In this document: positions 5,024 to 46,606 of the stretch, piece by piece
How the letters are laid out: each line of letters starts with the position of its first letter
How positions within the stretch are numbered: position 1 is the stretch's first letter
Origin: Candidatus Wolfebacteria bacterium
GTDB lineage: Bacteria; Patescibacteriota; Minisyncoccia; Phycocordibacterales; Phycocordibacteraceae
Assembly: GCA_002400985.2 (NCBI GenBank)
Contig: NVRX02000004.1
Span: 114,245 to 178,244 of the forward strand
Reading direction: 5' to 3'
Length of the DNA stretch: 64,000 nt
Made by a program: the position numbers and the translations under genes
Notes under the pieces: model-generated
Seen by the model: the letters and a program-made list of their open reading frames with translations, nothing else
Told to the model about the DNA's origin: nothing
The model's database searches: none

Positions 5024-6379
5024 TTATACAAGTAGTCCCCGTACCTGATCTATCTCTTCACCAAGAACGGTATCAGTAAGAAGTTCTCTCTTTATCTTCT
5101 CACACGAATGAATAACTGTTGTGTGGTCTCTTCCTCCCATCTTACTCCCTATTGTTGGATAGGAAACACTGAAATCCTCTCGGAGAATGTACATGATTAC
5201 CTGTCTGGGGCGTACAATCTCCCTCCTTCGTGTTTTTTCATAAATGCTTTCCTCATCAATACCGTAGAACTCAGCAATTTTAGAGACAATATTTTTAACA
5301 GAAATAGAACGTTGAGGCTTACTTATTGTTTTAAGTATATTCTTTATTTCTGTCAGATTGGGAATCTCCCCCTTTAATTGTGAGTGACACACAATACTGT
5401 TGAGTATCCCCTCCAACTCTCGAATACTTCCCTTTGCTGTTGTAGCAATAAACTCAATAGTTTCTTGAGGAAGAACAATACCGTGTACTGTAGCCTTCTT
5501 TCGAAGAATAGATATTCTAGAGTCAGTATCTGGTTCTCCAATATCAACAATCATTCCCATAGAGAAGCGTGTTTGAAGCCTGTTTGCTAATTCAGGTATG
5601 TGATTAGGGTTTTTGTCTGACGAGAAAACAATTTGTTTATTGTTGTCGTGTAGGTAGTTAAACAAATGGAATAGTTCTTCTTGTGTTTTTTCCATCTTTG
5701 CCATGAATTGAATATCGTCCATGATAAGAAGATCATATTGACGATACTTCTCTCTAAATCTTTTCGCAGTACCGTTTGCTACTGAAGATTGAAATTCATG
5801 CACAAACTTTTCAGAAGCCAGATAAAACACTTTTCTATTTGGATACAGTCTTTTATACTCGTTTCCAACCGCTTGAATCAAATGAGTCTTTCCCCTACCA
5901 GTGTCACCATATATAAACAGTGGATTATAGGTGATTCCTGGGCGCTTTACCGCTGCTTGAGATGCTGCGTATGCAAGCTCATTAAAAGAGCCCACAACAA
6001 ACGAGTCAAACGTATATCGTGGGTTTAGATTGTCACTCTTGTTTATGTAGTACTGCTCAAGAGGAAGCTCCCCTGTTGCATTCTTTGTTTTGTATGATTT
6101 ATCTGCATGTCTTCTCTTTTCATCTCGCACAATAATGTATTCAACATTCCGTAGGTTTTCACTTACCCCAAGAACAATTTGAAGAATAAGTTTGTGGAAT
6201 TTTTTTATGTACCAATCTTTAAAAAACTGACTGGGTACTCCTATATAGACAACACTGTCATCTATCCGTACAATACCGCTGTCTTTAAACCAAGTGTTGA
6301 AATTTGCGGAAGAGATGGATAGTTCAACTTGAGCCAGTATCTTCTCCCAAAGTTCGCGCGTATCAATCTGAGTATTCAT
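5024..6379 (-). CDS. dnaA: Chromosomal replication initiator DnaA
   Basis: AAA+ Walker A GDTGRGKTHL, Walker B LLIMDDIQF, and a C-terminal DnaA-box binding domain (..GGRDHTTVIHSCEKI). Confidence 0.95.
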   Translation of the reverse strand: MNTQIDTRELWEKILAQVELSISSANFNTWFKDSGIVRIDDSVVYIGVPSQFFKDWYIKKFHKLILQIVLGVSENLRNVEYIIVRDEKRRHADKSYKTKNATGELPLEQYYINKSDNLNPRYTFDSFVVGSFNELAYAASQAAVKRPGITYNPLFIYGDTGRGKTHLIQAVGNEYKRLYPNRKVFYLASEKFVHEFQSSVANGTAKRFREKYRQYDLLIMDDIQFMAKMEKTQEELFHLFNYLHDNNKQIVFSSDKNPNHIPELANRLQTRFSMGMIVDIGEPDTDSRISILRKKATVHGIVLPQETIEFIATTAKGSIRELEGILNSIVCHSQLKGEIPNLTEIKNILKTISKPQRSISVKNIVSKIAEFYGIDEESIYEKTRRREIVRPRQVIMYILREDFSVSYPTIGSKMGGRDHTTVIHSCEKIKRELLTDTVLGEEIDQVRGLLV

Positions 6380-6949: not shown

Positions 6950-7714
6950 ATGTTTTCAAATATTTTTCACGCAATAGCATACGATCCAATTTATAACTTT
7001 CTGGTGTTCCTTGTGGATATCATTCCTGGCGGGAGTGTTGGAGTTGCTGTTATTTTAGCTACTGTTGTTGTAAAAATCATTCTCTTCCCTCTTTCTCTTT
7101 CTGCTGTACGTACTCAAATGGTCTTAAAAACAGTACAGCCAAAAATAAAAGAGGTACAAGATAGGCTAAAAGATAAAAAAGAAGAAATGGCAAAGGAGCT
7201 AATGGCTTTATATAAAAAGTACAAAATAAATCCCTTCTCTTCTCTACTTTTGTTTATTATTCAAATTCCAATAATTATTGCACTATATTTGGTTTTCTTG
7301 CGCGAAGCATTTCCAGTAATAAATACAGATATACTATACTCATTCGTCCCTATTCCTGAGCTAATAAACCTTGATTTCTTTGGGTTTATTACGGTTACAG
7401 ACAGAAGTATCGTGCTTGCTCTTCTTGCCGGAATAACACAATTCTTTCAAGTTCGTTTTGCTATGCCAGCACCTGGCCCACGAAAGAAAGATGCAACAAT
7501 GAAGGAAGACATGGTTCGAAACCTTCAACTCCAGCTACGGTTTATGATGCCAGTTCTTATTACCATCTTCGCGTACATGATTTCAGCGGTTGTTGCTCTG
7601 TACTTCATTACAAGCAACCTATTTGCTATAGGGCAAGAACTCTACATGCGACAAACAGTAAAGAAGGAAAAGAAAGAAGAAGAGATTGCTACTGCCGAAG
7701 TAAAAGAAGTTTAA
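6950..7714 (+). CDS. yidC: Membrane protein insertase YidC (short, monoderm type)
   Basis: Multi-TM protein of 254 aa with a basic Lys/Glu-rich C-terminal tail. Position after rnpA. Confidence 0.88.
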   Translation: MFSNIFHAIAYDPIYNFLVFLVDIIPGGSVGVAVILATVVVKIILFPLSLSAVRTQMVLKTVQPKIKEVQDRLKDKKEEMAKELMALYKKYKINPFSSLLLFIIQIPIIIALYLVFLREAFPVINTDILYSFVPIPELINLDFFGFITVTDRSIVLALLAGITQFFQVRFAMPAPGPRKKDATMKEDMVRNLQLQLRFMMPVLITIFAYMISAVVALYFITSNLFAIGQELYMRQTVKKEKKEEEIATAEVKEV

Positions 7715-8895
7715 AGGTCAAACCCCCAAAGACTCCCGTCTCGTCTATTTATAAAGGTTAGGTATTCTTCATCAGAATCTATTGAAAGGTTTATTCCGTC
7801 AAATGGTCCACTTTCATCAAAGAAGGCAATAGCTTGTGCTGATCCTTCGTCTACAAAAATACGCCACAAGGAGTCATTAAATGAAACATATCCTTGGTAC
7901 CAGTGTTCAGGATAGTTTGCAGGGGGCACAATTTCAGGAACCATACAGTATGCTGTTGTTTCGCTTGCCCACACACACTTCTCAGGAAGTATAGAAAGAG
8001 GGAGGGGTCTCATATCTCCTGTTTCTCTGCTATATATAGAAGACATAAAGCTTCTGTCTGTAGATTCGCTAAAGATAACGTAATCTCCTGTTTTGTTTGG
8101 GAGAGCCGTAAGACCATTTTTGTTTCCAAGAATTCTTTGCTGTGTTTCATTTTCATAAAAATACAGTGCGCCAGCAAGTGAACTTGCTGGTTTTGTAAGC
8201 ACAGCAACAAAAGATTCTGCAAAAACAGGAACAGTAAAACTTAGAAGATTTGTTTCAAAAGATGACCTTTCTTCTCTTCCCTCATTGTTAAGGATAAATC
8301 CTTCACTTCCTCTGTCAGTAGAAGATACGGTAAGTAGAGAGTTGTCAGAGGTTTGAGTGGAAGGAAGATCAATATCTAAATATGACCCGACAAGAGAGCC
8401 ATCAACAATTTCTCCGAGGTATGTTTCTATTTCTCCATCTCCATTTATATATCGAAACACTAATTTGTTTGGATCGGTAAACCACCCCACCTCTTGGATT
8501 CCAGGAAATGTTGTATTGGATATTCTTTCAGATACATTTTCTTCTGGAGAATAAGAAAAGACATGCCCTGTCTGTTTGTCGACATACTGTACAAAAGTTG
8601 AGAGCCTTGCTTCTGTTGTGCTTCCTACTGCTACAAGTACTTCACTCGTGTATGCAGACGCACCAGCAACAGGGGCTTCATGTATTTGTGTAAGAGTCGT
8701 GCTCTCTTTTATGGGTGTACTGTCTACAACAAAATCAATGCTGTCGTCTTGAGTAATGGTTATTGGAGAACCGTCAAAATTGAATCCAGGATTTGCAGTT
8801 GTTGAGGAACCGTCTCGAAGTACAAAGAAATATACTCCACCGGCAAGGAGGATGAATATAAGAATGATGCTTAGGAATATTATTATTTTTTTCAT
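7711..8895 (-). CDS. Membrane-anchored extracytoplasmic protein, hypothetical (last gene of the VirB4 locus)
   Basis: N-terminal TM MKKIIIFLSIILIFILLAGGVYFFVL followed by about 360 aa of beta-rich sequence. It is translationally packed against the upstream gene (3-nt gap). Confidence 0.55.
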   Translation of the reverse strand: MKKIIIFLSIILIFILLAGGVYFFVLRDGSSTTANPGFNFDGSPITITQDDSIDFVVDSTPIKESTTLTQIHEAPVAGASAYTSEVLVAVGSTTEARLSTFVQYVDKQTGHVFSYSPEENVSERISNTTFPGIQEVGWFTDPNKLVFRYINGDGEIETYLGEIVDGSLVGSYLDIDLPSTQTSDNSLLTVSSTDRGSEGFILNNEGREERSSFETNLLSFTVPVFAESFVAVLTKPASSLAGALYFYENETQQRILGNKNGLTALPNKTGDYVIFSESTDRSFMSSIYSRETGDMRPLPLSILPEKCVWASETTAYCMVPEIVPPANYPEHWYQGYVSFNDSLWRIFVDEGSAQAIAFFDESGPFDGINLSIDSDEEYLTFINRRDGSLWGFDL

Positions 8896-8898
8896 AGT

Positions 8899-9852
8899 TT
8901 AATAAAAATCACATTTAATACTGCGCCCAGGGGCCAGATCTATGTGTTTAATTGGTGTCTCTCCTATATTGCTCAGTGTTGGATTTTTAAAAGTAAGTAA
9001 TTTGTCATTAAAGAGAGACAAAATTATGTCAATACCTTTGTTTTGTTTATCATCAGCTTTTTCACAAATGGCTGCTCCGGTTTTTCCAGACAAATTAAAT
9101 TGTGACAAAGGAGGAGCAATAACCGTTCCGTTTTCGTCATCTAAAGTAACAATAACTCTGGCAGACAAGAGTCGAGGAGCCAGATCGCAATAGGTTTGAG
9201 TAGAATCTGTGTTTCCGCTAGCGGTTAGTATTTTGGTCTTAACAATTCCTCCCGTTAACACACAACAATTTTCTAGTTCTCTGTTAGACATGACTGCCTC
9301 GTCCGGAAGATCACCATTTCTGATTGGAGAGATAATGTTCTTTGGTGTAAAGAAAAAGCCATCTCTAACTACCCTAAACTTTGTAGTATTCCACTGCACA
9401 GCGGAGCAAATTTCAGAATCTATCTCTCCTGGTTCAGGAAGAATTATCCCACCTCCCCCTTGTGACCCTTCGCTACTAAGTCTAGAAAGATTAAGGTCAA
9501 GGTTTAAGATATCTTGATTAATTACACCAAAGACAATAACAGGAGACAGAAGAAGCATAAGTCCCAGTATCGCTCGTGTAATAGCAGCCCTCCCTTCACT
9601 TTTATTCCCAACAACCTCGCTCGTCATATATTGGAAGCCTCCGTACATAATAACAAGCACTGCAAGTATTGCTCCAATACCAACTCCGTATTGATAAAGC
9701 TTGTTTACAAAGCTTCCAATGTTTGCTTGATCCTCGGGCTTTACCCCAATACCCGTAAGGGGCTCAACCGTAACAGCACCCTGTGCAAGTACATCAGGCG
9801 CAAAAATAAGAACGAGAGCAAGAAGTCCAAATGTGTAAAAGAATGTTTTCAT
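8899..9852 (-). CDS. TrbC/VirB2-like pilin module fused to a six-Cys C-terminal domain
   Basis: Start at internal Met (MKTFFYTFGLLALVLIFAPDVLAQ, a signal peptide). Two hydrophobic helices (YGVGIGAILAVLVIMYGGFQYM and AILGLMLLLSPVIVFGVI) flank a short basic loop, which is the VirB2/TrbC pilin architecture. A 180-aa tail with 6 Cys follows. Confidence 0.5.
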   Translation of the reverse strand: MKTFFYTFGLLALVLIFAPDVLAQGAVTVEPLTGIGVKPEDQANIGSFVNKLYQYGVGIGAILAVLVIMYGGFQYMTSEVVGNKSEGRAAITRAILGLMLLLSPVIVFGVINQDILNLDLNLSRLSSEGSQGGGGIILPEPGEIDSEICSAVQWNTTKFRVVRDGFFFTPKNIISPIRNGDLPDEAVMSNRELENCCVLTGGIVKTKILTASGNTDSTQTYCDLAPRLLSARVIVTLDDENGTVIAPPLSQFNLSGKTGAAICEKADDKQNKGIDIILSLFNDKLLTFKNPTLSNIGETPIKHIDLAPGRSIKCDFY

Positions 9853-9853
9853 A

Positions 9854-10852
9854 TTAGAAGTTAAATAAGCCTGTATTTTCAATACCAAAAGTAAACGAGG
9901 CAGAATCACCGCCTTGAAGGGTGACTTCTTGTGGATGCTCAATAGAAACACTTATCTGAGCCCTGCCTCTCCCGTTCCCTGCTTGCCTAAGGGTGATAGT
10001 GCCAAGATCGTCATTGGTGCTCGATACCCGTGTTCCATTAAGTTTCCATGCATACGTAATAGGAAGAGATTCTCTATATATTCCAGGCACATAAAATGGC
10101 TCTGCATTGATGGTAACCTCATCTGCATTGAGTTCTGTTTCATTTGCAAGAATATTTGTTGTGCTCAATCCAAGAAGAGGGTTAATGGCATATAGAAGCA
10201 CTTCAGGACGTTCAGTTTTAATACTGACAGATTTCCTTCCTTGAACTTTTCCATCTATGCTTGCAACATCGACACGAATATTCAGTCGCCTACTAAATGG
10301 AGCAGCAACAGTATTAAGAACATCTCTTCCTGCTCCAGATATTGATCCTTGAACAGTTCCATTTATTCTCCATGTATAAATAAAGTCTTTAGAGGTGTAA
10401 CCATTTCCAAAAGAAGGAGTGGCAATAATACGAACAGATGCTTTGTGGGTTGCAAGAGCCGCTCCTTTATATAGAGGAGGAGTATAGGTCTCTGCTTCAA
10501 CAATAAGATCAATTACTGAAGGGGTGATACTTATTGTGTGTGAAATAGTTTCTCCATTTCGTGTAGCAGTGAAAGAAACGTTTGTTTTTTCTCCAACATC
10601 TCCCACAAGAAATTCAACTGTTTTTAATCCTCTTCCCTCATTAATCACTTTTCCGTCTACACTCCACACAACTTGTGCTCGAGAAATATCAAAAGAATAT
10701 GTTTCCGCAAAGACAGAGACACTTTCTCCAGGATTTGGGAATAAAGGGGTTACTTTAAAATCAAAAGAACGCTCTACTTGTGCTGAAACAGGCAGAACAC
10801 TCACAAAAGAAAGCATTAAAAGTATACTAAAAATCCGTACAAGACCTTGCAT
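9854..10852 (-). CDS. Secreted protein with three tandem Ig-like repeats
   Basis: Signal peptide ending ..LPVSAQ. Three repeats of about 100 aa each contain W-x-(V/I/L)-(D/N)-G (VVWSVDGKVI, YTWRINGTVQ, YAWKLNGTRV). Confidence 0.6.
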   Translation of the reverse strand: MQGLVRIFSILLMLSFVSVLPVSAQVERSFDFKVTPLFPNPGESVSVFAETYSFDISRAQVVWSVDGKVINEGRGLKTVEFLVGDVGEKTNVSFTATRNGETISHTISITPSVIDLIVEAETYTPPLYKGAALATHKASVRIIATPSFGNGYTSKDFIYTWRINGTVQGSISGAGRDVLNTVAAPFSRRLNIRVDVASIDGKVQGRKSVSIKTERPEVLLYAINPLLGLSTTNILANETELNADEVTINAEPFYVPGIYRESLPITYAWKLNGTRVSSTNDDLGTITLRQAGNGRGRAQISVSIEHPQEVTLQGGDSASFTFGIENTGLFNF

Positions 10853-10874
10853 ATAGTGTTATGGTAGCACGCAT

Positions 10875-11312
10875 TTATTTACTAATTTTTGTTATTGTTT
10901 TAACGACCTTCCCCATAGGAGTAGCTTTTAGAAATACCTTAGGCACAAGTGATGCGGGGAAACCTTTTGTTCCATTTGCTTCAATGAGTGTAAAGAGAAC
11001 GTTTGCAGAAAGTATTGGTATAGCTGTTAAAAATGGCAGCGATTCAACAACAAGTCCTCCAGTTTTTCCCAAGAAAGACATGGGTTTTTTAATATTAAAG
11101 AAGGGTACGTTTAGAAATGCAAACCAAATAAGGAATAGTAAATATGCGAAGGCTGCCATTGGTAAGGCAACAGTAAAAGCAAGAACTTGAGTCACAATTG
11201 TAGGAAGAAAACCAAACATTGTTATAACAATTTGCATAAGGTCAAACATTCCGGCAACTAAAAGCATTGCGGCAGAATGAAGCACTCCTATTTTTGGCTT
11301 AACCGATTCCAT
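10875..11312 (-). CDS. Small polytopic membrane protein (about 4 TM), hypothetical
   Basis: 145 aa and dominated by hydrophobic helices. It overlaps the VirB4 gene stop by 14 nt. Confidence 0.55.
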   Translation of the reverse strand: MESVKPKIGVLHSAAMLLVAGMFDLMQIVITMFGFLPTIVTQVLAFTVALPMAAFAYLLFLIWFAFLNVPFFNIKKPMSFLGKTGGLVVESLPFLTAIPILSANVLFTLIEANGTKGFPASLVPKVFLKATPMGKVVKTITKISK

Positions 11313-13134
11313 TTTGTTGATTTGTTGCAGATAAACGCTCCTTCTCTCTCTTTATTGCAAGAAGCTGTGATGGGTCCGATGTGATAATTTGGTCTTCTGT
11401 GTACGAGGCAATTATTTTAATAGCTACATGCTTAAGGCCGGCAAAGAAAATACCCTCCCCCACCCCACTTTCGAGAAGAAGAAATTTTTCTTCTTCTGTT
11501 AGATTGAATACTTCTTGTAATTGATCAATAACAGTTGGAGACTGCTTCATGAGTAATTGCATAGAAGAGTTTGAAAGCATTGGTCGTCCGTATGGGGAAT
11601 TAAGGAAGTCGTCCACATCTTGCGTAAGGGCAGCAACACCCAGGAAGTATTTTCGACCCCGTTTTACCATGCTGTACAAGAATGAAGCAGTATCTTCATT
11701 TTTCATCATCCACCATGCCTCATCAATAACCAAAAGACGTTTCTTCAGATTCCTTCGCACAGCATTCCAAATGTGGTGCGTAATGATGTACATCGCAACA
11801 GGCTTAAGATCATCCTCCATGTCTCGTACAGAGAAAACAATAAATTGTTTATTGATATCAACGTTTGTTGGACGATTAAGGAATCCAGACCACGTACCAC
11901 GAGTATATTTTGAAAGTCTTTGCACGAGAGATTCCGACCCCTCCATTCCAGAAAGCACCATTTCAAAATCAGAGAGAAGAGGAACCTCCATATTTGAAAA
12001 GTCAGTCTCCCCTGTTATGTCCTTAAGGGCATATGTTTCTGCGATAGCTCTATCGACAATTGCATCCTCTTCAGGGGTAAGGCCTCCAAGCATGAGTCTG
12101 AAAAGTCCTACCAAGTTAATAATGTTTGATCGGAGAATATCTTTTGGCTCTTCACCATCTTGAAGTTTTGGAAGATCAAAAGGGTTCACATGATGCTCTG
12201 ATGAAAGAGAAATGTTGAAATATCTTCCTCCCGTTGCTGTTGCAAGCTGCTCATATTCTCTTTCGGGGTCAATAACGATTACGTCTGTACCAAACATAAG
12301 GGACCGGAGGATTTCAAGCTTCGCCGCATAACTTTTTCCTGCTCCAGATGTAGAGAGGGTTACAGAGTTGTAGTTTGGTAGGGAAAACCGATCAAAAAGA
12401 ATAAGACTGGCATTATGTCTATTAATACCGTATAAGATTCCCGAGTCACTTGTAAGGTCAAAAGAAGTAAATGGGAAAATACTGGAAAGAGGTGAAGAAT
12501 TAAGTTTTGAATGTACTGCTAGCTTGTCAGTTCCTGTAGGAATAACACTCTTAAGACCTTGTTCTTGCTGGAACAACGCAGGCTTAAGGTATACAAGCTT
12601 TGAGTCTAGAAGACCTCGTACTTCAGATTCTGTCTTGTCTAATTCTTCCCTCGTATTTGCGTAAAGCGTAATATATACTCCCACGTCAAAAAGTTTTTCT
12701 TGTGCTTGTTGTAGTTTATCTCGTAGATCTTCTAGGTCTTGAAATGCAGTGTCGAGTTTTGGGTCACGAACAAGGCCTTTTTGCTGACGATCTAGTATTT
12801 GACTCTGTACCTCGGCAACTTTCTTTTGGAACTTGCGTAGTGCTTGTGCGGTGTCTACTGGATGAATAAAAATTGATACATCTAGTACTTTGTCGAGATT
12901 TATAACAGGATCAAACCATCCTTGTGCCAAGAATCGTGGATATGAAATTACATACAGCGTTCTAATTATTTTTCCTCCCAATTCAATATCTTTTGAATTA
13001 ACTTTGAGTGCAGTAGGGGCAATAACGTCTTCAAAGGACAGGGCTCCTTGCTGGTATATGTCATTTGGAAGAACCGGCGTTATATCTACCGCGTCTTTTC
13101 CTTTGTTTTGTTTAAAAAAGTCTGTTAGTGCCAT
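11299..13134 (-). CDS. virB4: VirB4/TrbE-type type IV secretion ATPase
   Basis: Walker A LSTSGAGKSYAAK and Walker B LLVIDEAWWMM. N-terminal domain has the ..RTLYVISYPRFL.. pattern typical of VirB4. The start is taken at Met23 (ATG 13134), which abuts the upstream stop at 13136-13138. Confidence 0.85.
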   Translation of the reverse strand: MALTDFFKQNKGKDAVDITPVLPNDIYQQGALSFEDVIAPTALKVNSKDIELGGKIIRTLYVISYPRFLAQGWFDPVINLDKVLDVSIFIHPVDTAQALRKFQKKVAEVQSQILDRQQKGLVRDPKLDTAFQDLEDLRDKLQQAQEKLFDVGVYITLYANTREELDKTESEVRGLLDSKLVYLKPALFQQEQGLKSVIPTGTDKLAVHSKLNSSPLSSIFPFTSFDLTSDSGILYGINRHNASLILFDRFSLPNYNSVTLSTSGAGKSYAAKLEILRSLMFGTDVIVIDPEREYEQLATATGGRYFNISLSSEHHVNPFDLPKLQDGEEPKDILRSNIINLVGLFRLMLGGLTPEEDAIVDRAIAETYALKDITGETDFSNMEVPLLSDFEMVLSGMEGSESLVQRLSKYTRGTWSGFLNRPTNVDINKQFIVFSVRDMEDDLKPVAMYIITHHIWNAVRRNLKKRLLVIDEAWWMMKNEDTASFLYSMVKRGRKYFLGVAALTQDVDDFLNSPYGRPMLSNSSMQLLMKQSPTVIDQLQEVFNLTEEEKFLLLESGVGEGIFFAGLKHVAIKIIASYTEDQIITSDPSQLLAIKREKERLSATNQQNGIG

Positions 13135-13135
13135 A

Positions 13136-13777
13136 TTATATTTGGGTTTGTATGGGTGTTTCAAATACTCCAGGGTTAAATGATCTATATAAAAGCTCAA
13201 GAACAGCCTCAGTGTCTAATTGCGTCGTTCGTACACCAGAGGCAGCAAGACCCTGTGCAACGACTGCTGTTCGTTGTGACAGCTGCTGTACCTGTTCATT
13301 AAAACGCTGATCTGCTTCAGGACTTTTCTTACCCCCCTTTCCAAAGAAAGGTATAGAGCTTATTGCACTTGCTGCAGAAACAGATTGATATGGAACTATG
13401 ACGTAAAAATGTTTACGCATAACACTTGTTTGGTCTACAAACTGCTCAACAAAGCGAGTGTATTCTCGGAGTTGAAGTTTCATAAGGTCAGATTCTTGTT
13501 GTTCACTCTTACTCTCAAGAAGTTTTAGATATGGACGGATATCAAGTTCTCGAGAGTGTACAAGGATTTGTACTGAAAAATCTAAAGTGTTAAGAAAGGT
13601 TTGGAAAGCTCCAATAATTGCATTTTGCTCGTCCTCACCTTTTAAAGCAAAGTTAACAGAAGAAGCCATAAGAATGCTTCTAAGTCCTCCGTCCTTTAGT
13701 ATAAGAGTTCCATTTCGAACTTCTTGAACAGGAACAAATGATTGTGTTGCGTTAGTTGCCATGAATATTTTGTTCAT
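13136..13777 (-). CDS. T4SS-associated cytoplasmic protein; by eye resembles the extreme N-terminal segment of Gram-positive VirB4-type ATPases
   Basis: The pattern ..FVPVQEVRNGTLILKDGGLRSILMASSVNFALKGEDEQNAIIGAFQTFLNTLDFSVQILVHSRELDI.. It sits directly upstream of virB4, in a different frame. Confidence 0.4.
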   Translation of the reverse strand: MNKIFMATNATQSFVPVQEVRNGTLILKDGGLRSILMASSVNFALKGEDEQNAIIGAFQTFLNTLDFSVQILVHSRELDIRPYLKLLESKSEQQESDLMKLQLREYTRFVEQFVDQTSVMRKHFYVIVPYQSVSAASAISSIPFFGKGGKKSPEADQRFNEQVQQLSQRTAVVAQGLAASGVRTTQLDTEAVLELLYRSFNPGVFETPIQTQI

Positions 13778-14171
13778 CTTTTACATCAAGTGACCATGCA
13801 AGTGCACGTATTTTCTGCATAGCGTCTTGCTGGGGTGCCTGTAAAGAAGGTGTGGCAGGTTTTGTTTCTGGTGTCCCCTGCTTCTTTCCTTGACCTTGTT
13901 TTTTCCAGAGGTACATCTTTCCTCCTGTAAAAAAGAAAAAAGCACTCTCAAGGACTTCAATAAAAGGCTTGTTATCTATCTTAACGAATGCTAGCGCTCC
14001 TCCAAGGCCCAGAAATGGAAGGGATAGGATAAGTCCAAAGACGAATGGAAGAGAGAGAAGAAGTACTGCAGAAATTCCTGCAGCTCCTGCAAGGTAAATA
14101 AACTGTTTGAGTGTAAAGGGTCCAAAAATCTTGTCCTCTACTTCAATAAACTGAGGGACTTGGTACTGCAT
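13752..14171 (-). CDS. PrgI/VirB3-like small membrane protein
   Basis: MQYQVPQFIEVEDKIFGPFTLKQFIYLAGAAGISAVLL.. is the PrgI-family start (Y-x-V-P..ed-K-i-fG-lt-rQ), followed by two TM helices. It sits upstream of virB4, as VirB3 analogues do. Confidence 0.6.
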   Translation of the reverse strand: MQYQVPQFIEVEDKIFGPFTLKQFIYLAGAAGISAVLLLSLPFVFGLILSLPFLGLGGALAFVKIDNKPFIEVLESAFFFFTGGKMYLWKKQGQGKKQGTPETKPATPSLQAPQQDAMQKIRALAWSLDVKDEQNIHGN

Positions 14172-14191
14172 TGTGTTTAGTATACCGCGTA

Positions 14192-14695
14192 TTATTCAAT
14201 TGGTTCGCGGTATGGATCAATTGCATATTTTTTTTCAATCTTCTTTTCTTTTTTAGGTTCACTGTGGTTTTCTACAGCAATAACGGTAGGTTCCTCAGGT
14301 GTTTTGTGAGGCCCTTCTATTGCTTCTTCGTCTGCAAATACGTTAGGGACTGCTTCAGGTAGAGGTTTTTTATAAGATTCAACAATAGGCTTAAATATTT
14401 TTTCATTCATTTCATGAGCAATTTTATTCGCCTGCTCTTTAGAAATTCCAACAACATGAATTAATCTTTGTTCGTACTCATTTGGAGAAATTAAACCAAT
14501 CAACAAGAGAGTTGTTTGTATCTCAATTTTTGCAGCAATATCCAAATGAAGATCATGGTTTGCAACAATATTTTGCATAACTTGTGGGTACGCATCGCTA
14601 TGCAAATAATTTTTTATTTGAGGAGGAATATTAGGCAACTGCTCTTTTATAAGTGTTTGTAAATCTGACATATTATTCATCTTCTTTTTTATCAC
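14192..14695 (-). CDS. Hypothetical soluble protein in the VirB4 locus
   Basis: Open frame of 167 aa. The probable start is at an internal Met (14680 or 14671) to limit overlap with the upstream gene. No recognisable motif. Confidence 0.5.
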   Translation of the reverse strand: MIKKKMNNMSDLQTLIKEQLPNIPPQIKNYLHSDAYPQVMQNIVANHDLHLDIAAKIEIQTTLLLIGLISPNEYEQRLIHVVGISKEQANKIAHEMNEKIFKPIVESYKKPLPEAVPNVFADEEAIEGPHKTPEEPTVIAVENHSEPKKEKKIEKKYAIDPYREPIE

Positions 14696-16838
14696 TTCCT
14701 CCAGAACTTTCTTTCAGTGTGTTTATAAGTGTATCTAGGTTCTTTTTGTCACTACTTTTCTTGAGCTCCTTATTAATTGCTTGTGACGCAGCAAGTTTTC
14801 CAGCTGCACCTGTACCAGTAAGATGAATAGGGCCAGTTCTGTAATCTCCTGTTCGCCGTTCCGTATATTTCCCTGAAGCCTGAAGTTCTGTTTTGATATC
14901 TTTTACTTCTTCAAGTTCGCGTTCTAGGTTATCTATTTTTGTTTGCAGCAGATTTTTTCTTACTGCGCCTGTTTCTGCATCAAGCTTTGCTTTTTGAGTT
15001 TCAATTTCAGAAAGAAGATTTTTTATATCTGCCTCAGCCTTTGCTGCACCACTAGAAAGTTCTTTTTTGCGAATTTTACCAATAGCCTTTGGAATTTTAA
15101 GACCAATAATAGGAACAGTCGACACTTCATCTTCAAGTTTTTGAGCATATTCTTTTTGGGGTGTTTGATCAATAACTCTTTTATCATCTTTAAGTTTTTC
15201 CTTTGCTCTTGCCAAATTTTTTCGTACCTGGGCCTTTTCTCCTTCTGGTGTTTCAGGGTTTGTTAAGGTTTCTTTAGAAGTTTCTTCTAAGGTTTTAAAC
15301 TCATCTTTAAGTCGTGTCTTTTCACCGCGCTCTTCTCTAGTAAGACCAAGAGTTTTTGCATATTTTTTTTCATCCTTAACTCGTGCTTTAACACTGCTTG
15401 TAAAGCCTTCAACAGGTTTTCCGGCCACATTTTGAACAACCTTTTTTCCGAGCAATTTTCCAGCTCCAGCACGCCCATCAAAGCTTGAGTCTCCAACCTT
15501 ATCAAAAGATTTCGCAGTAAGGCGACCAACAGTGCTCCTCCCAAATTTTGAACTTCTAACTGCAGCTGATGCAGCTGATCCCGCTCTTCCAATAGTGCTT
15601 CTCCCTGCCAAGGCTACGGCACCTGAAGTAACTCCAGCAAGCCTTCTTGTTCCAAAGTTTTGTACGCTCATTGCAGCTTTTGCTCCAGATACCCCCATGT
15701 CACCTGCAACCTTTATGGACATAAAGAGTAGGCCAAGCGCAATAAGGAAAATAACGATAATATTCATGGAATCAAGATTTCCGTTTACAAATATTTCAGC
15801 AAAGCTTTGGTCGTTGGAATTTCCAAAGAAAGCACTTTCGCGTGCGCTATTGAGGAATAAGAGAGAGATGGATATGAGAAGAAGCAGTATTGGAGCAAAA
15901 AAGGCCTCTTGAATGAGGCTTTGCAGCCATTTATCAAAATGTTTTCGTGTGCTTGGGAGAATGTATGCTGCCATAGCTGGTCCAGAAGCAATCATGAGCA
16001 GGAGAAGTTTTATTATTCGCATGATAAGCAAGACTGCTCCAGCTAGAAATACAATTGCAGCTGCGGAAAGGAAAATAAATCCAAAGAATCCAAAAGCAAG
16101 AGCCCTTCCCCCATCACTTGCGCTTGTTCCTGTGAATATGCTGTTCTCGCTCCTTTCAAGTTCTCCCTGTCTTTCTCTCGCATTTGCCCCAAGTGTTGTG
16201 TCTACACTGTTTCCAAAAATACTTACAAGACCAAGTTGTTGAATAAATGCAGTGGCTATTCCCTGTTTAATTAAGCAGTTTTCCTCATTGTCGCACTCGG
16301 TTATAACTACACCGCTTTGGTTTAATATGGCCCCTGCAAACCCATGCGCAATATCAATTGTTGCTCTTGTAAAGAAAAGACTAAAGTTTATAAGTATGGC
16401 AACAGCAAGAAGGACTGGAAGAAGTTTTTTAATGTTGTATTGCTGAAGATTTAATATCGTTCCAATTCCTATTGCGAGGAATATAAATATAAAGAACATG
16501 TTTGCAACATCTCGGAGAACCGCCCAGGCAATGAGAACACCAGGTATGTTTGCGAGGCCTGCAAACTCGATAATGCTATATTTTATTCCAAAATTAAACA
16601 GTGCCCCTGCAACCCATAAGAATAGCGCTCCAATATTTAAGAAAAGTACCGCAATAGACTGCAGCAGTTTTGTAAAGTTTTTTTCAACAAATCCTACACT
16701 TCCTGTATTAGAAATGTCACTACTTGTTACTTGTGCCATTGCAACACCAAGATCAACAGAATTCACATCAATAACAACCGGCGCAACAAATGTTGCAAGC
16801 AGGAGGAGTGAAAAAATTGTTGTTATAAGTATTCGCAT
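14673..16838 (-). CDS. VirB6/TrbL-like polytopic membrane protein with a long Lys-rich coiled-coil tail
   Basis: Signal/TM segment, then about 8 hydrophobic helices over roughly 400 aa. This is followed by about 320 aa of K/E/A-rich predicted coiled coil (..KAEADIKNLLSEIETQKAKLDAETGAVRKNLLQTKIDNLERELEEVK..). Confidence 0.5.
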   Translation of the reverse strand: MRILITTIFSLLLLATFVAPVVIDVNSVDLGVAMAQVTSSDISNTGSVGFVEKNFTKLLQSIAVLFLNIGALFLWVAGALFNFGIKYSIIEFAGLANIPGVLIAWAVLRDVANMFFIFIFLAIGIGTILNLQQYNIKKLLPVLLAVAILINFSLFFTRATIDIAHGFAGAILNQSGVVITECDNEENCLIKQGIATAFIQQLGLVSIFGNSVDTTLGANARERQGELERSENSIFTGTSASDGGRALAFGFFGFIFLSAAAIVFLAGAVLLIMRIIKLLLLMIASGPAMAAYILPSTRKHFDKWLQSLIQEAFFAPILLLLISISLLFLNSARESAFFGNSNDQSFAEIFVNGNLDSMNIIVIFLIALGLLFMSIKVAGDMGVSGAKAAMSVQNFGTRRLAGVTSGAVALAGRSTIGRAGSAASAAVRSSKFGRSTVGRLTAKSFDKVGDSSFDGRAGAGKLLGKKVVQNVAGKPVEGFTSSVKARVKDEKKYAKTLGLTREERGEKTRLKDEFKTLEETSKETLTNPETPEGEKAQVRKNLARAKEKLKDDKRVIDQTPQKEYAQKLEDEVSTVPIIGLKIPKAIGKIRKKELSSGAAKAEADIKNLLSEIETQKAKLDAETGAVRKNLLQTKIDNLERELEEVKDIKTELQASGKYTERRTGDYRTGPIHLTGTGAAGKLAASQAINKELKKSSDKKNLDTLINTLKESSGGSDKKEDE

Positions 16839-16839
16839 A

Positions 16840-18216
16840 TTATGTACTACAGTTATTTAGAATATCTTCAGCTTCAGCAATAAGGGCATTTGCCTGTGTT
16901 TGTAGTAACGATGCTTGAATAGGACTTGCTTCTGTCGGTACGTCTCCAGCACCCAGAAGGCTTTGGTATTGTTGCGCAATCACGAGGTACTCTGAACGGC
17001 TGTTTGATTGCAATAGATCTCCAAGAAGTCTTTGCAATGTACGTACGCCACTTTCTATAGTTGAACGTAATGAAAGTGCCTCGGTTCGATGCCCAGAAGC
17101 TTCTTGAGAAATACTTTGTAGCCGAGCGAGATTTGCTGAGGTGCAGGTCCCTTGGGAAAGTCCTGTTGAGTAAAAACTGCTTGCACGTGCGGCATCAGAA
17201 ACTACTCTCTCAAGAGTTCTTTCTGCGGTAGTCCCACTACGGATTCCACTCTCAATTGTGTTTTCAAGTGTACTTCTATCTTCCTCGCTTACACCAGGAT
17301 TGTTTGTGCTATCAAAATATGAAGATCCTCCACCGTTTGATCTGCTTGTTCCAATGAGCCCTTGAGCCCCTCCAAGTGCCTGGCTTACAAGCTGGTTCAT
17401 AAGGGCTCCGATAATTTCATTGATGTCGTCAGCAACAAGTAGTCGATCCCTGCCTATTCCAAGAGAGTCATTGAGTTGGTTCTGGATAGTGTCTCCAGGT
17501 GTGAGTACATCTCCTGTACAATTTGGCTCTTGTTCCCCATTGAGACACTCTCTTTTAGATAAAAATCCTCCATTCCACTCAAGGAGCTGTCTTTCTCCTT
17601 CTAGTTGTCCAAAGATTCTCCCATCAAGCTCTTGTCGGAGATCAAGTGCCAGCAAGTAGGGGTTGTTTTGTGGTCGTGCAGTTACATTGAAGAATTGATC
17701 AAGGCCTCCTTGGGATAGGTCATTTTCTAAGAACTTCTCAACATTTCCTATTGCATCACTTAGTGTACAAGAGTATCTATCAGCAAGTGAGGAGTTTCCT
17801 CCAGCTTGATAGTATCCAACTTCCAGAGAGAATCTAATATCAGCAGAAAATGCTTCACACAAGAATCCCCCTCCCAATTCCTGTAAGAAGTTCCCTGCTA
17901 TATTGTCTGCAATGTCTACAAAGAACCTTCCGGGATTTTGAATAAATGCAGGACTTCCATTGAACCCAGAGTTTATCCACGTAACAATGTCTTGCGTCAT
18001 CTGCTCAAGAGCAATATTTGCAATCTGCCATGCAATACCATCGAGGACGTACTCCTTAACACTATCCAAAACAGTTTTTGCTGTAGTAATAGTATTTGTT
18101 ACTACATTTGGCCCAACTTCAACAACAGCAAATTGAGCATGTGCTTTTTCTGGAACCAATATCCCCCCACCAAGGACGGTTGTAGCAAAAAGAATTGTTA
18201 GAAGGATTTTTTTCAT
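16840..18216 (-). CDS. Secreted protein, hypothetical (VirB4 locus)
   Basis: Signal peptide MKKILLTILFATTVLGGGILVPEKAHAQ. 458 aa with several Cys. Its stop is 1 nt from the next gene start. Confidence 0.55.
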   Translation of the reverse strand: MKKILLTILFATTVLGGGILVPEKAHAQFAVVEVGPNVVTNTITTAKTVLDSVKEYVLDGIAWQIANIALEQMTQDIVTWINSGFNGSPAFIQNPGRFFVDIADNIAGNFLQELGGGFLCEAFSADIRFSLEVGYYQAGGNSSLADRYSCTLSDAIGNVEKFLENDLSQGGLDQFFNVTARPQNNPYLLALDLRQELDGRIFGQLEGERQLLEWNGGFLSKRECLNGEQEPNCTGDVLTPGDTIQNQLNDSLGIGRDRLLVADDINEIIGALMNQLVSQALGGAQGLIGTSRSNGGGSSYFDSTNNPGVSEEDRSTLENTIESGIRSGTTAERTLERVVSDAARASSFYSTGLSQGTCTSANLARLQSISQEASGHRTEALSLRSTIESGVRTLQRLLGDLLQSNSRSEYLVIAQQYQSLLGAGDVPTEASPIQASLLQTQANALIAEAEDILNNCST

Positions 18217-19145
18217 AGACCAAATGCTTGTCGAGCAGTAATGATTTCATCAATATTATAAATACTGCTACGTGAAAGCTCTTCATTGATAATAGAAATT
18301 GCCTCAGCAAGTCTGTTTGCTTCAGGTTGATATTCAGAAAGTACTGCAAGAGCATATACTGCATCATCAAACGTTGCAGAAAAGGCTTCTATAATTACAG
18401 AAAGCCTCATTGCTGATGTTATGAGTGCTGCGTGATTTGCTCGGAGAGTTGTAGGCGCTGCTAGTGCAGCCAATGTTTCTCCCAGTGTTTCATATCCTTG
18501 TGCAATCCGTGCAACATCAGACAGAAGAATGGCGTCATTTGCATCAAGAGCCCTCTCAAGCAAGATAAGTTCACTCTCTGTTACACCTGTTGGAGTTGCC
18601 TCTTGTGTAAGAAGCACTAGAGAAATGAAATATGTGCCAAGCGCCTCGTCAGTTGCAGAGACAGTTTTTACATTCAGTGGTGAAAATGCTTCTGGAAGGT
18701 TTGCAGACACACTATTTGTGAGTCGTGCTATCAACGCGTTTTTTTCTATGTCTGTTATCTCTCCATCCTCCTGATATTGAAGATATTCTCCAAAGAAGGT
18801 TCGGGAAAACTGTGAGGTGAAGTTGAGATCATCAAAATCTATAATTTCTTCAGGAGTTTTGTCTTTTGATCTGCTGGCTACATATTCTCCATCGAGAATT
18901 CCATCCCCATCGGTATCAATTACAAATGGATTTGTTCCCCATAGAGTTTCCTCCCAGTCGAGAAGGCCATCTCCATCGGAATCTTTTTCAATAATCTGGG
19001 CTTGAAGTGCAGAGGACGGTGACGCAACAGCTTGCTCGGCAAAGTTAACTGACGTACTTGTGTTTAAGAGAAATGCACCAGAAATAATCGCAACTCCCAA
19101 AATGAGCGCCGATACAATTCCTGTATGGTTTTTTAAATAATTCAC
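18213..19145 (-). CDS. Membrane-anchored protein with thrombospondin type-3-like Ca-binding repeats
   Basis: GTG start and an N-terminal TM segment. DSDGDGLLDWEE..NPFVIDTDGDGILDGEY are DxDxDG calcium-binding repeats. It is the first gene of the locus. Confidence 0.6.
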   Translation of the reverse strand: MNYLKNHTGIVSALILGVAIISGAFLLNTSTSVNFAEQAVASPSSALQAQIIEKDSDGDGLLDWEETLWGTNPFVIDTDGDGILDGEYVASRSKDKTPEEIIDFDDLNFTSQFSRTFFGEYLQYQEDGEITDIEKNALIARLTNSVSANLPEAFSPLNVKTVSATDEALGTYFISLVLLTQEATPTGVTESELILLERALDANDAILLSDVARIAQGYETLGETLAALAAPTTLRANHAALITSAMRLSVIIEAFSATFDDAVYALAVLSEYQPEANRLAEAISIINEELSRSSIYNIDEIITARQAFGL

Positions 19146-22072: not shown

Positions 22073-23095
22073 GTGACAGAAAATGCTAAAAAATTATCTC
22101 TCGGTCTTTTGATCGTTAGTTCAATTGTATTAGCAATTACCCCGCTTTTTGCCTCAGCGGGGATTTTAAGTAACTTGTTTGGCAGTTCTTCATTTCAGTT
22201 CAGCACGCCTCGTTTTTCTGTACATTCATCAAGTCTAACGCTTCTAAAGAGTGCAACAAACATCAATCCAAACCCAGCACAGGGTGGTGCTGACCTTACT
22301 ATTGTAGGAGGATCTGCCCTTATCGCAGAAGGTGGTGTAAATCCAGCAGTTTCTATACAAGAGTCTCAAACAGGCAAGATTAGCCTATATGTAGTGCGAG
22401 ATGGTGATTCATTATCTCAAGTTGCAAAAATGTTTGGTGTTTCTATAAATACTATTGTGTGGGCCAACAACTTACGTAGTGCCACAGCCATTTCCCCAGG
22501 ACAAACACTTGTTATTCTTCCTATCTCAGGGCTTAAATATGAAGTTAAAAAAGGAGACACATTAGCTAAAATCGCCAAGAAGTATAAAGGAGATTCTGAA
22601 GAAATAGCTATATTTAACGGTCTAGAAACAAATGCTTCTCTTGCAATAGGTGATGAAATAATCATCCCTGGTGGAGAAATGGCTGTAACAGTAAGCTCGA
22701 GAACACGAACACAAGCCCTTCGGGGAGCAGGAGGTCCTACATTTACAGGATATTATACAAAGCCAGTTCCAGGATCAACACGAACACAAGGGCTTCATGG
22801 CTACAATGCTGTTGATCTTGGCGCCCGTTCAGGAACATCTATTGTTGCTGCTGCAAGCGGAACGGTTATTATCTCTCGAGAAGGTGGATGGAATGGTGGA
22901 TACGGTAGTTACATTGTAATTTCTCACAATAACGGAACGCAAACACTCTATTCTCACAACTCAAGTAACATTGTTGGTGTTGGGCAGTCAGTGGTGAAAG
23001 GCCAGGTTATTGGATACGTAGGAAGTACTGGAAAGTCCACCGGCCCACACGTCCACTTTGAAGTCCGCGGTGCAACAAACCCATTTGCATACTAA
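22073..23095 (+). CDS. LysM-domain M23 family peptidoglycan endopeptidase
   Basis: Signal/TM segment and two LysM repeats (GDSLSQVAKMFGVSINTIVWANNL, KKGDTLAKIAKKYKGDSEEIAIFNGL). M23 motifs HGYNAVDL and GSTGKSTGPHVHFEV. GTG start. Confidence 0.88.
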   Translation: MTENAKKLSLGLLIVSSIVLAITPLFASAGILSNLFGSSSFQFSTPRFSVHSSSLTLLKSATNINPNPAQGGADLTIVGGSALIAEGGVNPAVSIQESQTGKISLYVVRDGDSLSQVAKMFGVSINTIVWANNLRSATAISPGQTLVILPISGLKYEVKKGDTLAKIAKKYKGDSEEIAIFNGLETNASLAIGDEIIIPGGEMAVTVSSRTRTQALRGAGGPTFTGYYTKPVPGSTRTQGLHGYNAVDLGARSGTSIVAAASGTVIISREGGWNGGYGSYIVISHNNGTQTLYSHNSSNIVGVGQSVVKGQVIGYVGSTGKSTGPHVHFEVRGATNPFAY

Positions 23096-23508: not shown

Positions 23509-25089
23509 CTACTCTCGCACAATTCGATCTGCAAGATCAAGAAAGGCCTCTTTTGTTCTTGTTATGAAAAGAATGTTTGGTGTTACAAAACCATATATAA
23601 GATGCGTGTTTCCATTTGCGTCATATAAGATGCGAGCATCACTCGTTTCTATTTCTTCATCCACAAACTGCTGGATGTATGGAGGCGTGGTTGTGCTTAT
23701 TGAAACTGTATCAAGTTCTCCAAAAAGTGGGCGCAATGCATTTGGCATGTCTGCCTCCCAAGACAAGAGACTTTTGAAACTTCTCTCAAAAGAAGTAACA
23801 GCAAGAACAAGTACTGGTTCCTTTTCTTCTCCAAGGATGCCAAGCATGCTCTGTGGGTAGACGCTCCGAGCAAGTGTTCCTGGAACAGAAGATGATTCAA
23901 GAAGAATATCTGAAAACGGTATTACCTCGGAACCTACTTCAGTTGGTATAGAAAAAGTTACATGGGTCAGCGCGTTTGCGAAAGGTGTTGGCACAGACGA
24001 AAGAAGATCTGCTAAGTTTGAGAGTGTAGGAATAGACGAGGCGCTTATTCGAGTTCTGTTTTCTGCGAACACGGGTGTCACTACGCGTGTTGGTGTAGCA
24101 ACAGGAGCAGTGTCTTGGCTAAGGAAATAGAAGGTGCCTGTTAGTGCGCCAACTCCAAGCACAACAAGAATAATTGCTATTGCAACAATCGGCTGTTTCT
24201 TTTTTAGAGACCGTTTTTTAGGCGCAGATTTTTTTGAATCCTGTTGCTTTGCAAGAACAGAAAGACGTGTGTCTTTTTGCTTTTTAATACCTCGGCGTGC
24301 GTCACTTGTGTACGTGCTCAGAGGGAATGGTTTTTTAAAGTCCTTCTGCTCTACAGGCATTTGTGGAGGAAGAGAAACTTCCGGAATACTTACTGTTACC
24401 TGCTTAGGTGGTGCAAATAGTGAATTCTTTGACACCGGGGAAACCTCCTTTTTGGGAAGTACTATCTTCGGAGGGGTTGGTGTAGCAACAGGAGCAGCTA
24501 CCTCTTTCTTTATCGGGGCTTTTGGTATTACCGGAATCCCTTCCAATTTCTTTGGCGGTATTACAGAGATTTTTTCTTTTGATACAGATTTTGATGCAGA
24601 TACAGAATCTTTTCCTGTTCCTCCCATAAGCCAAGCCATAGCTTTTTCAACAAAACTTTCTTTTGGAGTAGATGATTCTTCAATGGTAACAATGGGAGGC
24701 TTTGGTTTTGTGGGTGCAACCTTGTCCTCTGGAGGTGTATTAATAATTTGCTCAATATCTTCCTTTGTAAATGATTTTGTATTAGCAAGATCAATGGACT
24801 CTGTAGAAGTTATTTCTTCAAGGTAGTGTTTTTTCTCAGCTGCTTGTAGGTTTTCTTTTGGAAGTTCAACAGCTTTCTTTTTTGGAGTAGGTGTAGGAAT
24901 TTTTTCTGCCTTTGCAACATCGGGTGCGGGAGCCTTCTTTTTCTCTGCCTCTTGCTTTGGTGCACTCGTAGGCATTGCTACATCCTTCCCTAGTTTTGCA
25001 AGATCACTTTGGTATGTTCGTACAACCCTCTTGGGGGTTTTGGCTGGTGTTGCAAATTGTGGTTGCTTACTATTTATTTGTTCCTCCAT
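23509..25089 (-). CDS. Lys/Pro-rich single-pass membrane protein, hypothetical
   Basis: 526 aa. The N-terminal approximately 300 aa are K/P/E-rich and low complexity, followed by a TM segment (IVAIAIILVVLGVGALTGTFYFL) and a C-terminal globular domain. Confidence 0.55.
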   Translation of the reverse strand: MEEQINSKQPQFATPAKTPKRVVRTYQSDLAKLGKDVAMPTSAPKQEAEKKKAPAPDVAKAEKIPTPTPKKKAVELPKENLQAAEKKHYLEEITSTESIDLANTKSFTKEDIEQIINTPPEDKVAPTKPKPPIVTIEESSTPKESFVEKAMAWLMGGTGKDSVSASKSVSKEKISVIPPKKLEGIPVIPKAPIKKEVAAPVATPTPPKIVLPKKEVSPVSKNSLFAPPKQVTVSIPEVSLPPQMPVEQKDFKKPFPLSTYTSDARRGIKKQKDTRLSVLAKQQDSKKSAPKKRSLKKKQPIVAIAIILVVLGVGALTGTFYFLSQDTAPVATPTRVVTPVFAENRTRISASSIPTLSNLADLLSSVPTPFANALTHVTFSIPTEVGSEVIPFSDILLESSSVPGTLARSVYPQSMLGILGEEKEPVLVLAVTSFERSFKSLLSWEADMPNALRPLFGELDTVSISTTTPPYIQQFVDEEIETSDARILYDANGNTHLIYGFVTPNILFITRTKEAFLDLADRIVRE

Positions 25090-43208: not shown

Positions 43209-43335
43209 TGCAAAAGAGTTAAAATTGACCCTTGGAAAGGAGAAATGTCTTTGGTAATAAATAATTTGTTATTACAAAGCTTGTGTGGTTCTCTTATATA
43301 AGATAACTAATCAATTTTATTAAAAGGAGAAGAAG

Positions 43336-43560: not shown

Positions 43561-43567
43561 GTACTCT

Positions 43568-43615: not shown

Positions 43616-43640
43616 ATCATTTGCATGATACATTTAAGGT

Positions 43641-44849: not shown

Positions 44850-44850
44850 T

Positions 44851-46587: not shown

Positions 46588-46606
46588 CACGTGCTAAAGT
46601 GAATGC

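Follow-up and report, generated by a model that had tools for sequence, protein, structure and literature searches.

A very probable Paceibacteria form of the chromosomal, non-conjugative Patescibacteria type IV secretion system near the replication origin of a Candidatus Wolfebacteria bacterium

Ultra-small host-dependent bacteria keep a secretion machine near their replication origin, and in the one cultivated case that has been tested this machine is needed for growth. For Southlakia epibionticum Wang et al. (2023) described an origin-proximal type IV secretion system (T4SS; SEML1_0006-0019) with pilins and without a recognisable relaxase or coupling protein, which is essential for epibiotic growth as judged by transposon sequencing (PMC10633639), while comEC is not (PMC12857230). 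Quinonero-Coronel et al. (2025) found the VirB4 proteins of Patescibacteria to form a monophyletic clade nested in MPF-FATA, covering 2,407 assemblies, with TrsD, PrgI/VirB3, VirB6 and VirB2-like pilins encoded near virB4; relaxases occur in just 103 of the 3,035 surveyed genomes, homologues of the type IV coupling protein (T4CP) are mostly unlinked, and dnaA, dnaN, rnpA and ksgA are frequent neighbours of virB4 in Paceibacteria (PMC12102498). A 2025 FEMS review lists the Patescibacteria systems as a new T4SS type (PMC12857230), and tubular parasite-to-host structures, possibly T4SS pili, have been reported for a Microgenomatia strain in culture, which also takes up RNA of its host (bioRxiv 10.64898/2026.06.21.733656). 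Here we analyse a 64-kb stretch of DNA from a Candidatus Wolfebacteria bacterium (contig NVRX02000004.1, positions 114,245 to 178,244; hereafter the window), in which eleven genes (g1 to g11) form a VirB4-centred block. This block is very probably the Paceibacteria form of the chromosomal non-conjugative T4SS of the Patescibacteria clade, derived from MPF-FATA systems of the CD1110 type and vertically inherited near the origin. The system itself is already known, with the same conclusion reached in PMC10633639 and PMC12102498 and reviewed in PMC12857230, and as it has been described, surveyed in 3,035 genomes and reviewed, the locus is another example and not a discovery. What we add is detail of the Paceibacteria component list, namely a predicted beta-propeller with a membrane anchor, a secreted protein with three repeats, a hypervariable pilin domain, a DPYRE-tailed cytoplasmic protein, a possible VirB5-position protein and a bipartite cluster.

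The open reading frame (ORF) listing of the window contains eleven co-oriented ORFs between 7711 and 19145, all on the minus strand. The most plausible starts are ATG codons at 14671 for g4, as given by alignment with its orthologues, at 13134 for the virB4 gene g7 and at 9852 for the pilin gene g10, and with these starts adjacent ORFs either overlap or leave 1-22 nt between them, which confirms the tight packing proposed in a preliminary description made from the sequence alone. According to family searches the block is flanked by dnaN, dnaA, rnpA and yidC on one side and by rsmA (ksgA) and uvrD on the other, in agreement with the chromosomal setting between yidC and rsmA/uvrD that had been claimed. 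The genes yidC (plus strand) and g11 are convergent and overlap by 4 nt at 7711-7714, so that there is no space for a terminator between them. For comparison we used the best 80 of 254 Patescibacteria loci with VirB4 relatives, and to determine their gene content all proteins of the window were searched against the 80 loci with tblastn.

The motor of the system is encoded by g7 (11299-13134, in an ORF of 11299-13200), a VirB4 ATPase of 611 aa and of the MPF-FATA/CD1110 type. It matches the CD1110 family model NF045971 with 400.1 bits (cut-off 325) over profile positions 179-733 and the TraG P-loop domain PF19044 with an E value of 2.7e-26, and its Walker A (SGAGKS) and Walker B (LLVIDEAWW) motifs can be read in the sequence, the P-loop being intact. 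Just 1 nt upstream of virB4 lies g6 (213 aa; 13136-13777), a TrsD-like protein equivalent to a detached N-terminal part of VirB4, which matches TrsD and VirB4-N-terminus models with E values from 1e-8 to 1.5e-5 (1.5e-5 for NF041427 TrsD), aligns to positions 2-131 of the 752-position CD1110 VirB4 profile and was found in 77 of the 80 loci. As g6 and g7 tile positions 2-131 and 179-733 of one profile, they represent one VirB4 split in two, a split between TrsD and VirB4 that is also seen in monoderm plasmids and chromids. The PrgI/VirB3-like protein g5 (139 aa; 13752-14171) has two transmembrane helices in a transmembrane scan, scores 30.5 bits against PF12666 (cut-off 27) and is present in 73 of the loci. 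The pilin gene g10 (8899-9852, in an ORF of 8899-9951) encodes 317 aa with a VirB2/TrbC-type pilin domain followed by a C-terminal domain of around 186 aa; it reaches 26.8 bits against PF18895 (cut-off 26.6) and matches also weakly to TrbC (E value 0.0042) and to the Mbov_0395 pilin-like model NF045849 (E value 8.5e-5). The profile searches that had been suggested thus place the VirB4, PrgI and VirB2/TrbC components over their cut-offs, the pilin fusion by a thin margin, and the assignment of the 213-aa protein as a VirB4 N-terminus is borne out by its TrsD and CD1110 matches.

For the VirB6/TrbL-like protein g3 (721 aa; 14673-16838) the picture is mixed. Its topology with around eight transmembrane helices and a long charged coiled-coil tail agrees with the earlier call, as does its placement, with VirB6 followed after one or two genes by PrgI, TrsD and VirB4 like in Southlakia SEML1_0008-0013, and one of 21 orthologues matches TrbL_4 (E value 9e-7) and one TrbL (0.0039). 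Its own match to NF046089 (CD3337/EF1877; E value 0.0016), however, stays below the cut-off, and VirB6 appears as the weakest of the assignments made by family search. Judged from the gene set, the block encodes a single-ATPase translocon of VirB6-like, VirB3-like and split VirB4 proteins, a VirB2-type pilin and several Sec-dependent extracellular proteins.

In order to look for conjugation functions, Pfam and NCBIfam models were run on 51 of the larger ORFs of the window and all its reading frames of at least 150 codons were scanned for Walker A motifs. Neither a relaxase nor a VirD4/TcpA-type coupling protein nor VirB11 was found in the 64-kb window, just as had been described before, and the same family scans gave no VirB9 or VirB10 match. 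The other large P-loop proteins of the window are just DnaA, UvrD and the PilB protein of a type IV pilus. PilB was considered as a hidden VirB11 and ruled out, as this only T2SSE-family ATPase of the window is a full-length protein of the PilB/GspE type (582 aa, with an MshEN domain) encoded beside PilC and pilin-like genes. The GC profile shows no break at the block, a search for att-like direct or inverted flanking repeats gave just short matches at chance level, and no tRNA gene is located near the block. The claim that there is no integrase holds for integrases of mobile elements, but a tyrosine recombinase does exist 7 kb beyond the block (26106-27002, plus strand). It is of the Xer type (260.9 bits with the XerA model, cut-off 220) and adjoins rpsO and an NYN gene in the distant locus L081 too, and we therefore regard it as a backbone gene and not as the integrase of a mobile element. 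An adjacent VirD4 and relaxase together with repeats or an integrase, which would have pointed to an ordinary integrative and conjugative element (ICE), were thus looked for in the window and none were seen.

With the Patescibacteria-clade T4SS (PMC12102498) the block shares VirB4, TrsD, PrgI/VirB3 and a VirB2-like pilin, the lack of a relaxase or T4CP near virB4 and the chromosomal position beside dnaA, dnaN, rnpA and ksgA/rsmA, and the membership in this family can be read from all of these; the VirB6-like g3 would complete the component set. Nothing essential differs, except that the accessory genes are unnamed there and that one pilin with a variable C-terminal domain is found here instead of a pilin array. 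The T4SS of Southlakia ML1 is also origin-proximal and shows pilins in the cluster and the same order of VirB6-like, PrgI, TrsD-like and VirB4 genes. In Southlakia, however, six small pilins are encoded in tandem, there are two VirB6-like proteins, and an NTF2-like (VirB8-like) protein and a lysozyme/peptidase follow downstream of virB4, whereas our block encodes a single long pilin and other accessory proteins, and no NTF2-like or lysozyme gene could be recognised within it. Essentiality has been shown for the Southlakia T4SS alone. The monoderm MPF-FATA systems (CD1110/CTn2, pGO1/pIP501, pCF10) resemble the block in their CD1110 equivalog VirB4, in TrsD (pGO1 type) and PrgI (pCF10 type) and in having no outer-membrane core components. 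In contrast to the block, they possess a relaxase, a T4CP, VirB1-like hydrolases and VirB8-like proteins, reside on plasmids or ICEs, usually lack VirB2 pilins and have VirB4 proteins with just 29-36% identity to g7. More distant are the VirB/VirD4 (MPF-T) systems, as VirB11, VirB9 and VirB10 have no match in the window, and the archaeal Ced system, the models of which stay far below their cut-offs (NF041017 CedB 34.1 bits vs 700, NF053655 CedD 15.3 bits vs 600). A cluster with an Mbov_0395-type pilin and a CD1110-type VirB4 was also found on an 898-kb replicon of Pontibacillus sp. ALD_SL1 (NZ_CP062975.1, 344313-370067). Its order is pilin, hypothetical protein, 779-aa protein, 116-aa protein, 274-aa TrsD-like protein, VirB4 and M23 peptidase, it lies beside flagellar genes, and within 12 kb the annotation lists neither a T4CP nor a relaxase. 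Unlike the block it belongs to a Firmicute, its replicon is typed as non-mobilizable, it is not near an origin and its VirB4 is 34% identical. From this cluster it follows that pilin-bearing FATA-type clusters without T4CP may exist in Firmicutes too.

To take a closer look at the evolution of the block we compared its sequences and gene order among the relatives. The VirB4 protein is 92-94% identical to that of two UBA2103/UBA3533 genomes labelled 'Patescibacteria group', one of which is a complete chromosome (CP174360.1, UBA2103, 578,798 bp), and 72-77% identical to those of 77 further loci, many of which carry Paceibacteria, Kaiserbacteria, Campbellbacteria or Nomurabacteria labels. Among plasmid matches the best ones listed reach 29-36% identity, and all 5,000 best-scoring plasmid records stay below 60%. 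Those listed come mostly from Firmicutes and Actinobacteria, the annotated ones are labelled CD1110-family or DUF87, and in several of them virB4 is directly preceded by a TrsD-like gene, which has a PrgI-family neighbour in the single case visible from the annotation. By pairwise identity VirB4 is therefore nearer to Patescibacteria VirB4 proteins than to plasmid ones (72-94% vs 29-36%). It is also the most conserved protein of the neighbourhood, above DnaA: between the window and the close relative L001 identity is 94% for VirB4, 92% for DnaA (encoded at 5024-6379), 84% for UvrD and 80% for both DnaN and YidC, and across the class it is approximately 75% for VirB4, 66% for DnaA, 41% for DnaN and 45% for YidC.

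The order dnaN-dnaA-rnpA-yidC-g11-g10-g9-VirB4-TrsD-PrgI is common to most of the 80 loci, and g4, g3, g2, g1, rsmA and uvrD are adjacent in about one quarter of them. Even in distant Paceibacteria the whole 25-kb gene order is conserved, as in Parcubacteria C7867-008, which keeps Exo_endo_phos-Xer-rpsO-NYN-...-LysM_M23-uvrD-rsmA-g1...g11-yidC with a g2 of just 28% identity. The synteny comparison across Patescibacteria proposed earlier thus shows a conserved block order and a recurring site between yidC and rsmA. In the Kaiserbacteria locus L014 (5328-8632) ComEC-like, SOD-like and M50 peptidase-like genes are located upstream of prgI instead of g1-g4, and the same three families are encoded in the window at 53476-58020, 40 kb from the T4SS block. 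As the adjacency of g1-g4 is lineage-restricted, we regard the cluster as bipartite and rearranged between lineages, with a conserved motor-pilin module beside yidC and a VirB6-containing module that is adjacent in some lineages. The synteny, the conservation and the distance from plasmid VirB4 proteins together argue for a vertically inherited set under strong purifying selection. Along with the absences in the window, the synteny and the VirB4 conservation also support the earlier proposal of a domesticated, chromosomal and non-conjugative machine.

The pilin g10 combines a stable and an unstable part. Its N-terminal 131 aa are 56-77% identical to those of L001-L003, whereas the C-terminal domain in the same loci is 25% identical, marginal or undetectable, with VirB4 there being 92-94% identical. 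Orthologues of g10 have lengths from 123 to 512 aa. From this collapse in identity together with the length range we conclude that the outer domain has been swapped or is evolving very fast.

At the downstream end of the block g11 (394 aa; 7711-8895) had been described as a membrane-anchored beta-rich protein, which can now be refined to an N-terminal transmembrane anchor followed by a predicted extracellular beta-propeller of TolB/WD40-like fold. The AlphaFold2 (AF2) model has a predicted local distance difference test (pLDDT) score of 89.6 and a predicted template modelling score (pTM) of 0.79, and its top Foldseek matches in the PDB are propellers (tricorn, trilobed protease, TolB, WD40) with E values around 1e-8 and TM-scores of 0.4-0.5. 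Present in 60 of the 80 loci, g11 has 110 homologues, none functionally annotated and one with any Pfam domain on record. The secreted protein g9 (332 aa; 9854-10852), found in 69 of the loci, carries a signal peptide and three internally homologous beta-rich repeats of around 100 aa each, with probabilities of 92-95% when the thirds are compared by hhalign. It had been called a triple-immunoglobulin (Ig) protein; the three repeats and the signal peptide stand, but the Ig-like fold itself is weakly indicated, with a hint from Hoc (E value 0.011) and a weak Cadherin-like match of the L081 orthologue. The small polytopic protein g8 (145 aa; 10875-11312) shows around four transmembrane helices in the transmembrane scan, as expected from the first description, and has no family match in Pfam or NCBIfam. 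Its sequence is conserved in L001-L003 only, with a small membrane protein at the same position in L014 and L081, which suggests a fast-evolving gene.

Upstream of prgI the protein g4 (167 aa; 14192-14695, probable start at the ATG 14671) is soluble and has no Pfam or PDB match in family and PDB profile searches. In the orthologue alignment its helical N-terminal domain is followed by a proline-rich linker, which varies strongly, and by a C-terminal DPYRE motif, which is invariant. This motif is found once per locus, 3-7 residues from the g4 C-terminus, in the window and 25 relatives, and among loci L001-L078 it is carried by the gene just before prgI in every locus with a located prgI; it could be a docking peptide. 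The all-helical secreted protein g2 (458 aa; 16840-18216), the secretion of which is borne out by a signal-peptide-like N-terminus, is encoded directly upstream of the VirB6-like gene. All of its 99 homologues are unnamed or hypothetical and come from Patescibacteria/Parcubacteria wherever a source is named. The AF2 model (pLDDT 70 overall) shows a confident helical bundle at residues 310-456 and low confidence in the N-terminal two thirds, and Foldseek with this model gave no PDB match below an E value of 0.1. Three of 53 g2 orthologues match DUF4141 over the signal peptide and the start of the mature protein, e.g. AQWAVIDPVNLVQN, with a best E value of 5.6e-8, and DUF4141 proteins are encoded beside traJ (VirB6) in Bacteroides conjugative transposons (PMC10434189). 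Due to these matches and the place directly upstream of the VirB6-like gene, g2 might be the part in the VirB5/TraI position, which we regard as a lead and not as a finding.

The first gene, g1 (310 aa; 18213-19145), encodes a transmembrane helix at residues 9-27, a helical extracellular region and two calcium-binding repeats of the TSP3 type that read as DSDGDGLLDWEE and DTDGDGILDGE, and it occurs exclusively in loci that also have g2-g4. The helix and the match of its profile (16 orthologues) to the repeat region of the Bap surface protein (E value 6.5e-4) agree with the calcium-binding-repeat membrane protein proposed before, but the score against PF18884 TSP3_bac is borderline, with 24.9 bits being 0.1 bit under the cut-off of 25. 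In addition to this Bap calcium-repeat region, PDB sequence and profile searches with g1, g2, g3, g4, g9 and g11 returned just coiled-coil noise and a weak Ig-like match. A VirB8-like (NTF2) or VirB1-like gene inside the block was not recognised by sequence, as also stated in the preliminary description. A LysM-LysM-M23 peptidase is encoded 3 kb upstream of the block (22073-23095, plus strand), divergent from uvrD, and this synteny is kept in L002, L003, L074, L075 and L081. It is a possible wall-remodelling partner in the VirB1 role, and it resembles cell-division proteins of the DipM/EnvC/NlpD type equally.

Several points weigh against the assignment of the block to the Patescibacteria-clade T4SS as one working machine. 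The VirB6 call for g3 relies on sub-threshold and transitive matches, the pilin exceeds its Pfam cut-off by just 0.2 bits, and none of the eleven genes is recognisably VirB8-like or VirB1-like. Most Kaiserbacteria-type loci keep the VirB6-containing half (g1-g4) apart from virB4, so the unit of eleven genes is not general, and its halves may not act together in every case. VirD4-like homologues occur elsewhere in most Patescibacteria genomes (PMC12102498). Beyond the window the genome may hold a VirD4-like gene and, with lower probability, a relaxase. Finally, pilus formation, cargo and direction of transport are all inferred for the Paceibacteria systems.

From the components we propose the following model. 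VirB4, the sole ATPase in the cluster, would power the extraction of pilins and their polymerisation into a short tube or pilus, which would cross the single membrane and the wall of a monoderm envelope. The variable C-terminal domain of the pilin, displayed on the filament, may contact the host cell, as this domain changes fast next to an N-terminal pilin domain with 56-77% identity. The propeller, the repeat protein and the calcium-binding protein may take part in this contact. The tube would then let macromolecules pass between epibiont and host, and by analogy to Southlakia this function may be needed for host-dependent growth. Transport could go either way, as import of host nucleic acids or other macromolecules, or as export of effectors. 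A more specific version, which we consider quite improbable, sees a VirB2-type tube with a fast-replaced host-recognition domain on the pilin, g2 as cap or primer and g4 docking with its DPYRE motif on the split VirB4 in replacement of VirD4, the whole being the main feeding conduit for host macromolecules. If true, such a feeding role would explain why the motor is conserved above DnaA.

A machine that exports protein effectors or is a mere adhesive surface filament, with no cargo being imported, is a doubtful explanation. In its favour, T4CP-less effector translocators exist in the form of Bordetella Ptl and Brucella VirB, and protein export was one option suggested by Wang et al. (PMC10633639). 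The several secreted proteins and the pilin with its variable outer domain encoded in the cluster would fit to both. On the other hand, in or beside the block family scans found neither effector-like nor toxin genes, nor a secretion-signal family that could be recognised, and its secreted proteins all have Sec-type N-termini and thus need no T4SS, which counts against effector export. The extreme conservation of the motor also suggests a central trophic role, although this is an argument only.

A DNA-uptake machine that feeds ComEC, like Helicobacter ComB or archaeal Ced, we regard as clearly unlikely. In the same 64-kb window a type IV pilus is encoded together with ComEC and RecJ, the ComEC-like gene of Kaiserbacteria L014 is located around 2 kb upstream of prgI with the SOD-like and M50 peptidase-like genes between them, and in ABY1 comF/recG/radA lie near the T4SS, for which import of DNA or other macromolecules has been proposed (PMC12102498). 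Such proximity may, however, just reflect clustering near the origin, and the CedB and CedD scores given above are far below their cut-offs. In Southlakia the deletion of comEC kills competence and not growth, while the T4SS is essential, and by analogy the essential role is unlikely to be ComEC-dependent transformation, as Southlakia grows without comEC but needs the T4SS.

That the block is an ordinary ICE or the remnant of an integrated plasmid, with relaxase, coupling protein and integrase outside of it, is extremely improbable and largely refuted: although VirB4, TrsD, PrgI, the pilin and VirB6 are all of conjugation-gene descent, a tyrosine recombinase is 7 kb away and the searches covered the 64-kb window of the genome, this recombinase is of the Xer type and keeps its place in the backbone of a distant genome, flanking repeats, a GC break and an adjacent tRNA gene are missing, many genomes throughout the class have the block at the site between yidC and rsmA, its VirB4 is conserved above DnaA, and relaxases are rare in the surveyed genomes (PMC12102498).

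Regarding expression of the non-conjugative T4SS block, the 48-nt spacer between rsmA and g1 contains an extended -10-like motif, TGCTATACT, at 19170-19162 on the minus strand, which was read directly. A promoter scan gave 31 sigma-70-like sites compared to 36.5 in shuffled sequence, so the motif carries no statistical weight. The terminator scan predicted none between uvrD/rsmA and the block, and as uvrD and rsmA are co-oriented just upstream, read-through from there is possible. With promoter and terminator counts at or below the shuffled expectation, the proposed promoter is neither favoured nor excluded: the motif claimed earlier for the block head is present, and such a promoter is plausible but unproven.

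The window also encodes a second envelope machine, the type IV pilus cluster at 41460-48614 (plus strand), which besides PilB with its MshEN domain and PilC comprises a 590-aa CarboxypepD_reg protein, one protein carrying an N-methylation motif and another of 485 aa without family. Competence-related genes follow with RecJ at 50896-52608 and ComEC at 53476-54903. A metallo-beta-lactamase-fold ORF (55449-56312) overlaps an ORF for a SOD C-terminal domain on the opposite strand (54900-55757), and ComEC may be split or rearranged. Between the T4SS block and the Xer-type recombinase a 526-aa ORF without family (23509-25089, minus strand) has a strongly negative AT skew; at its position L081 has a 474-aa protein without Pfam match. 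Within this ORF a 22-nt direct repeat has exact copies at 24089 and 24476, with a spacing of 387 nt.

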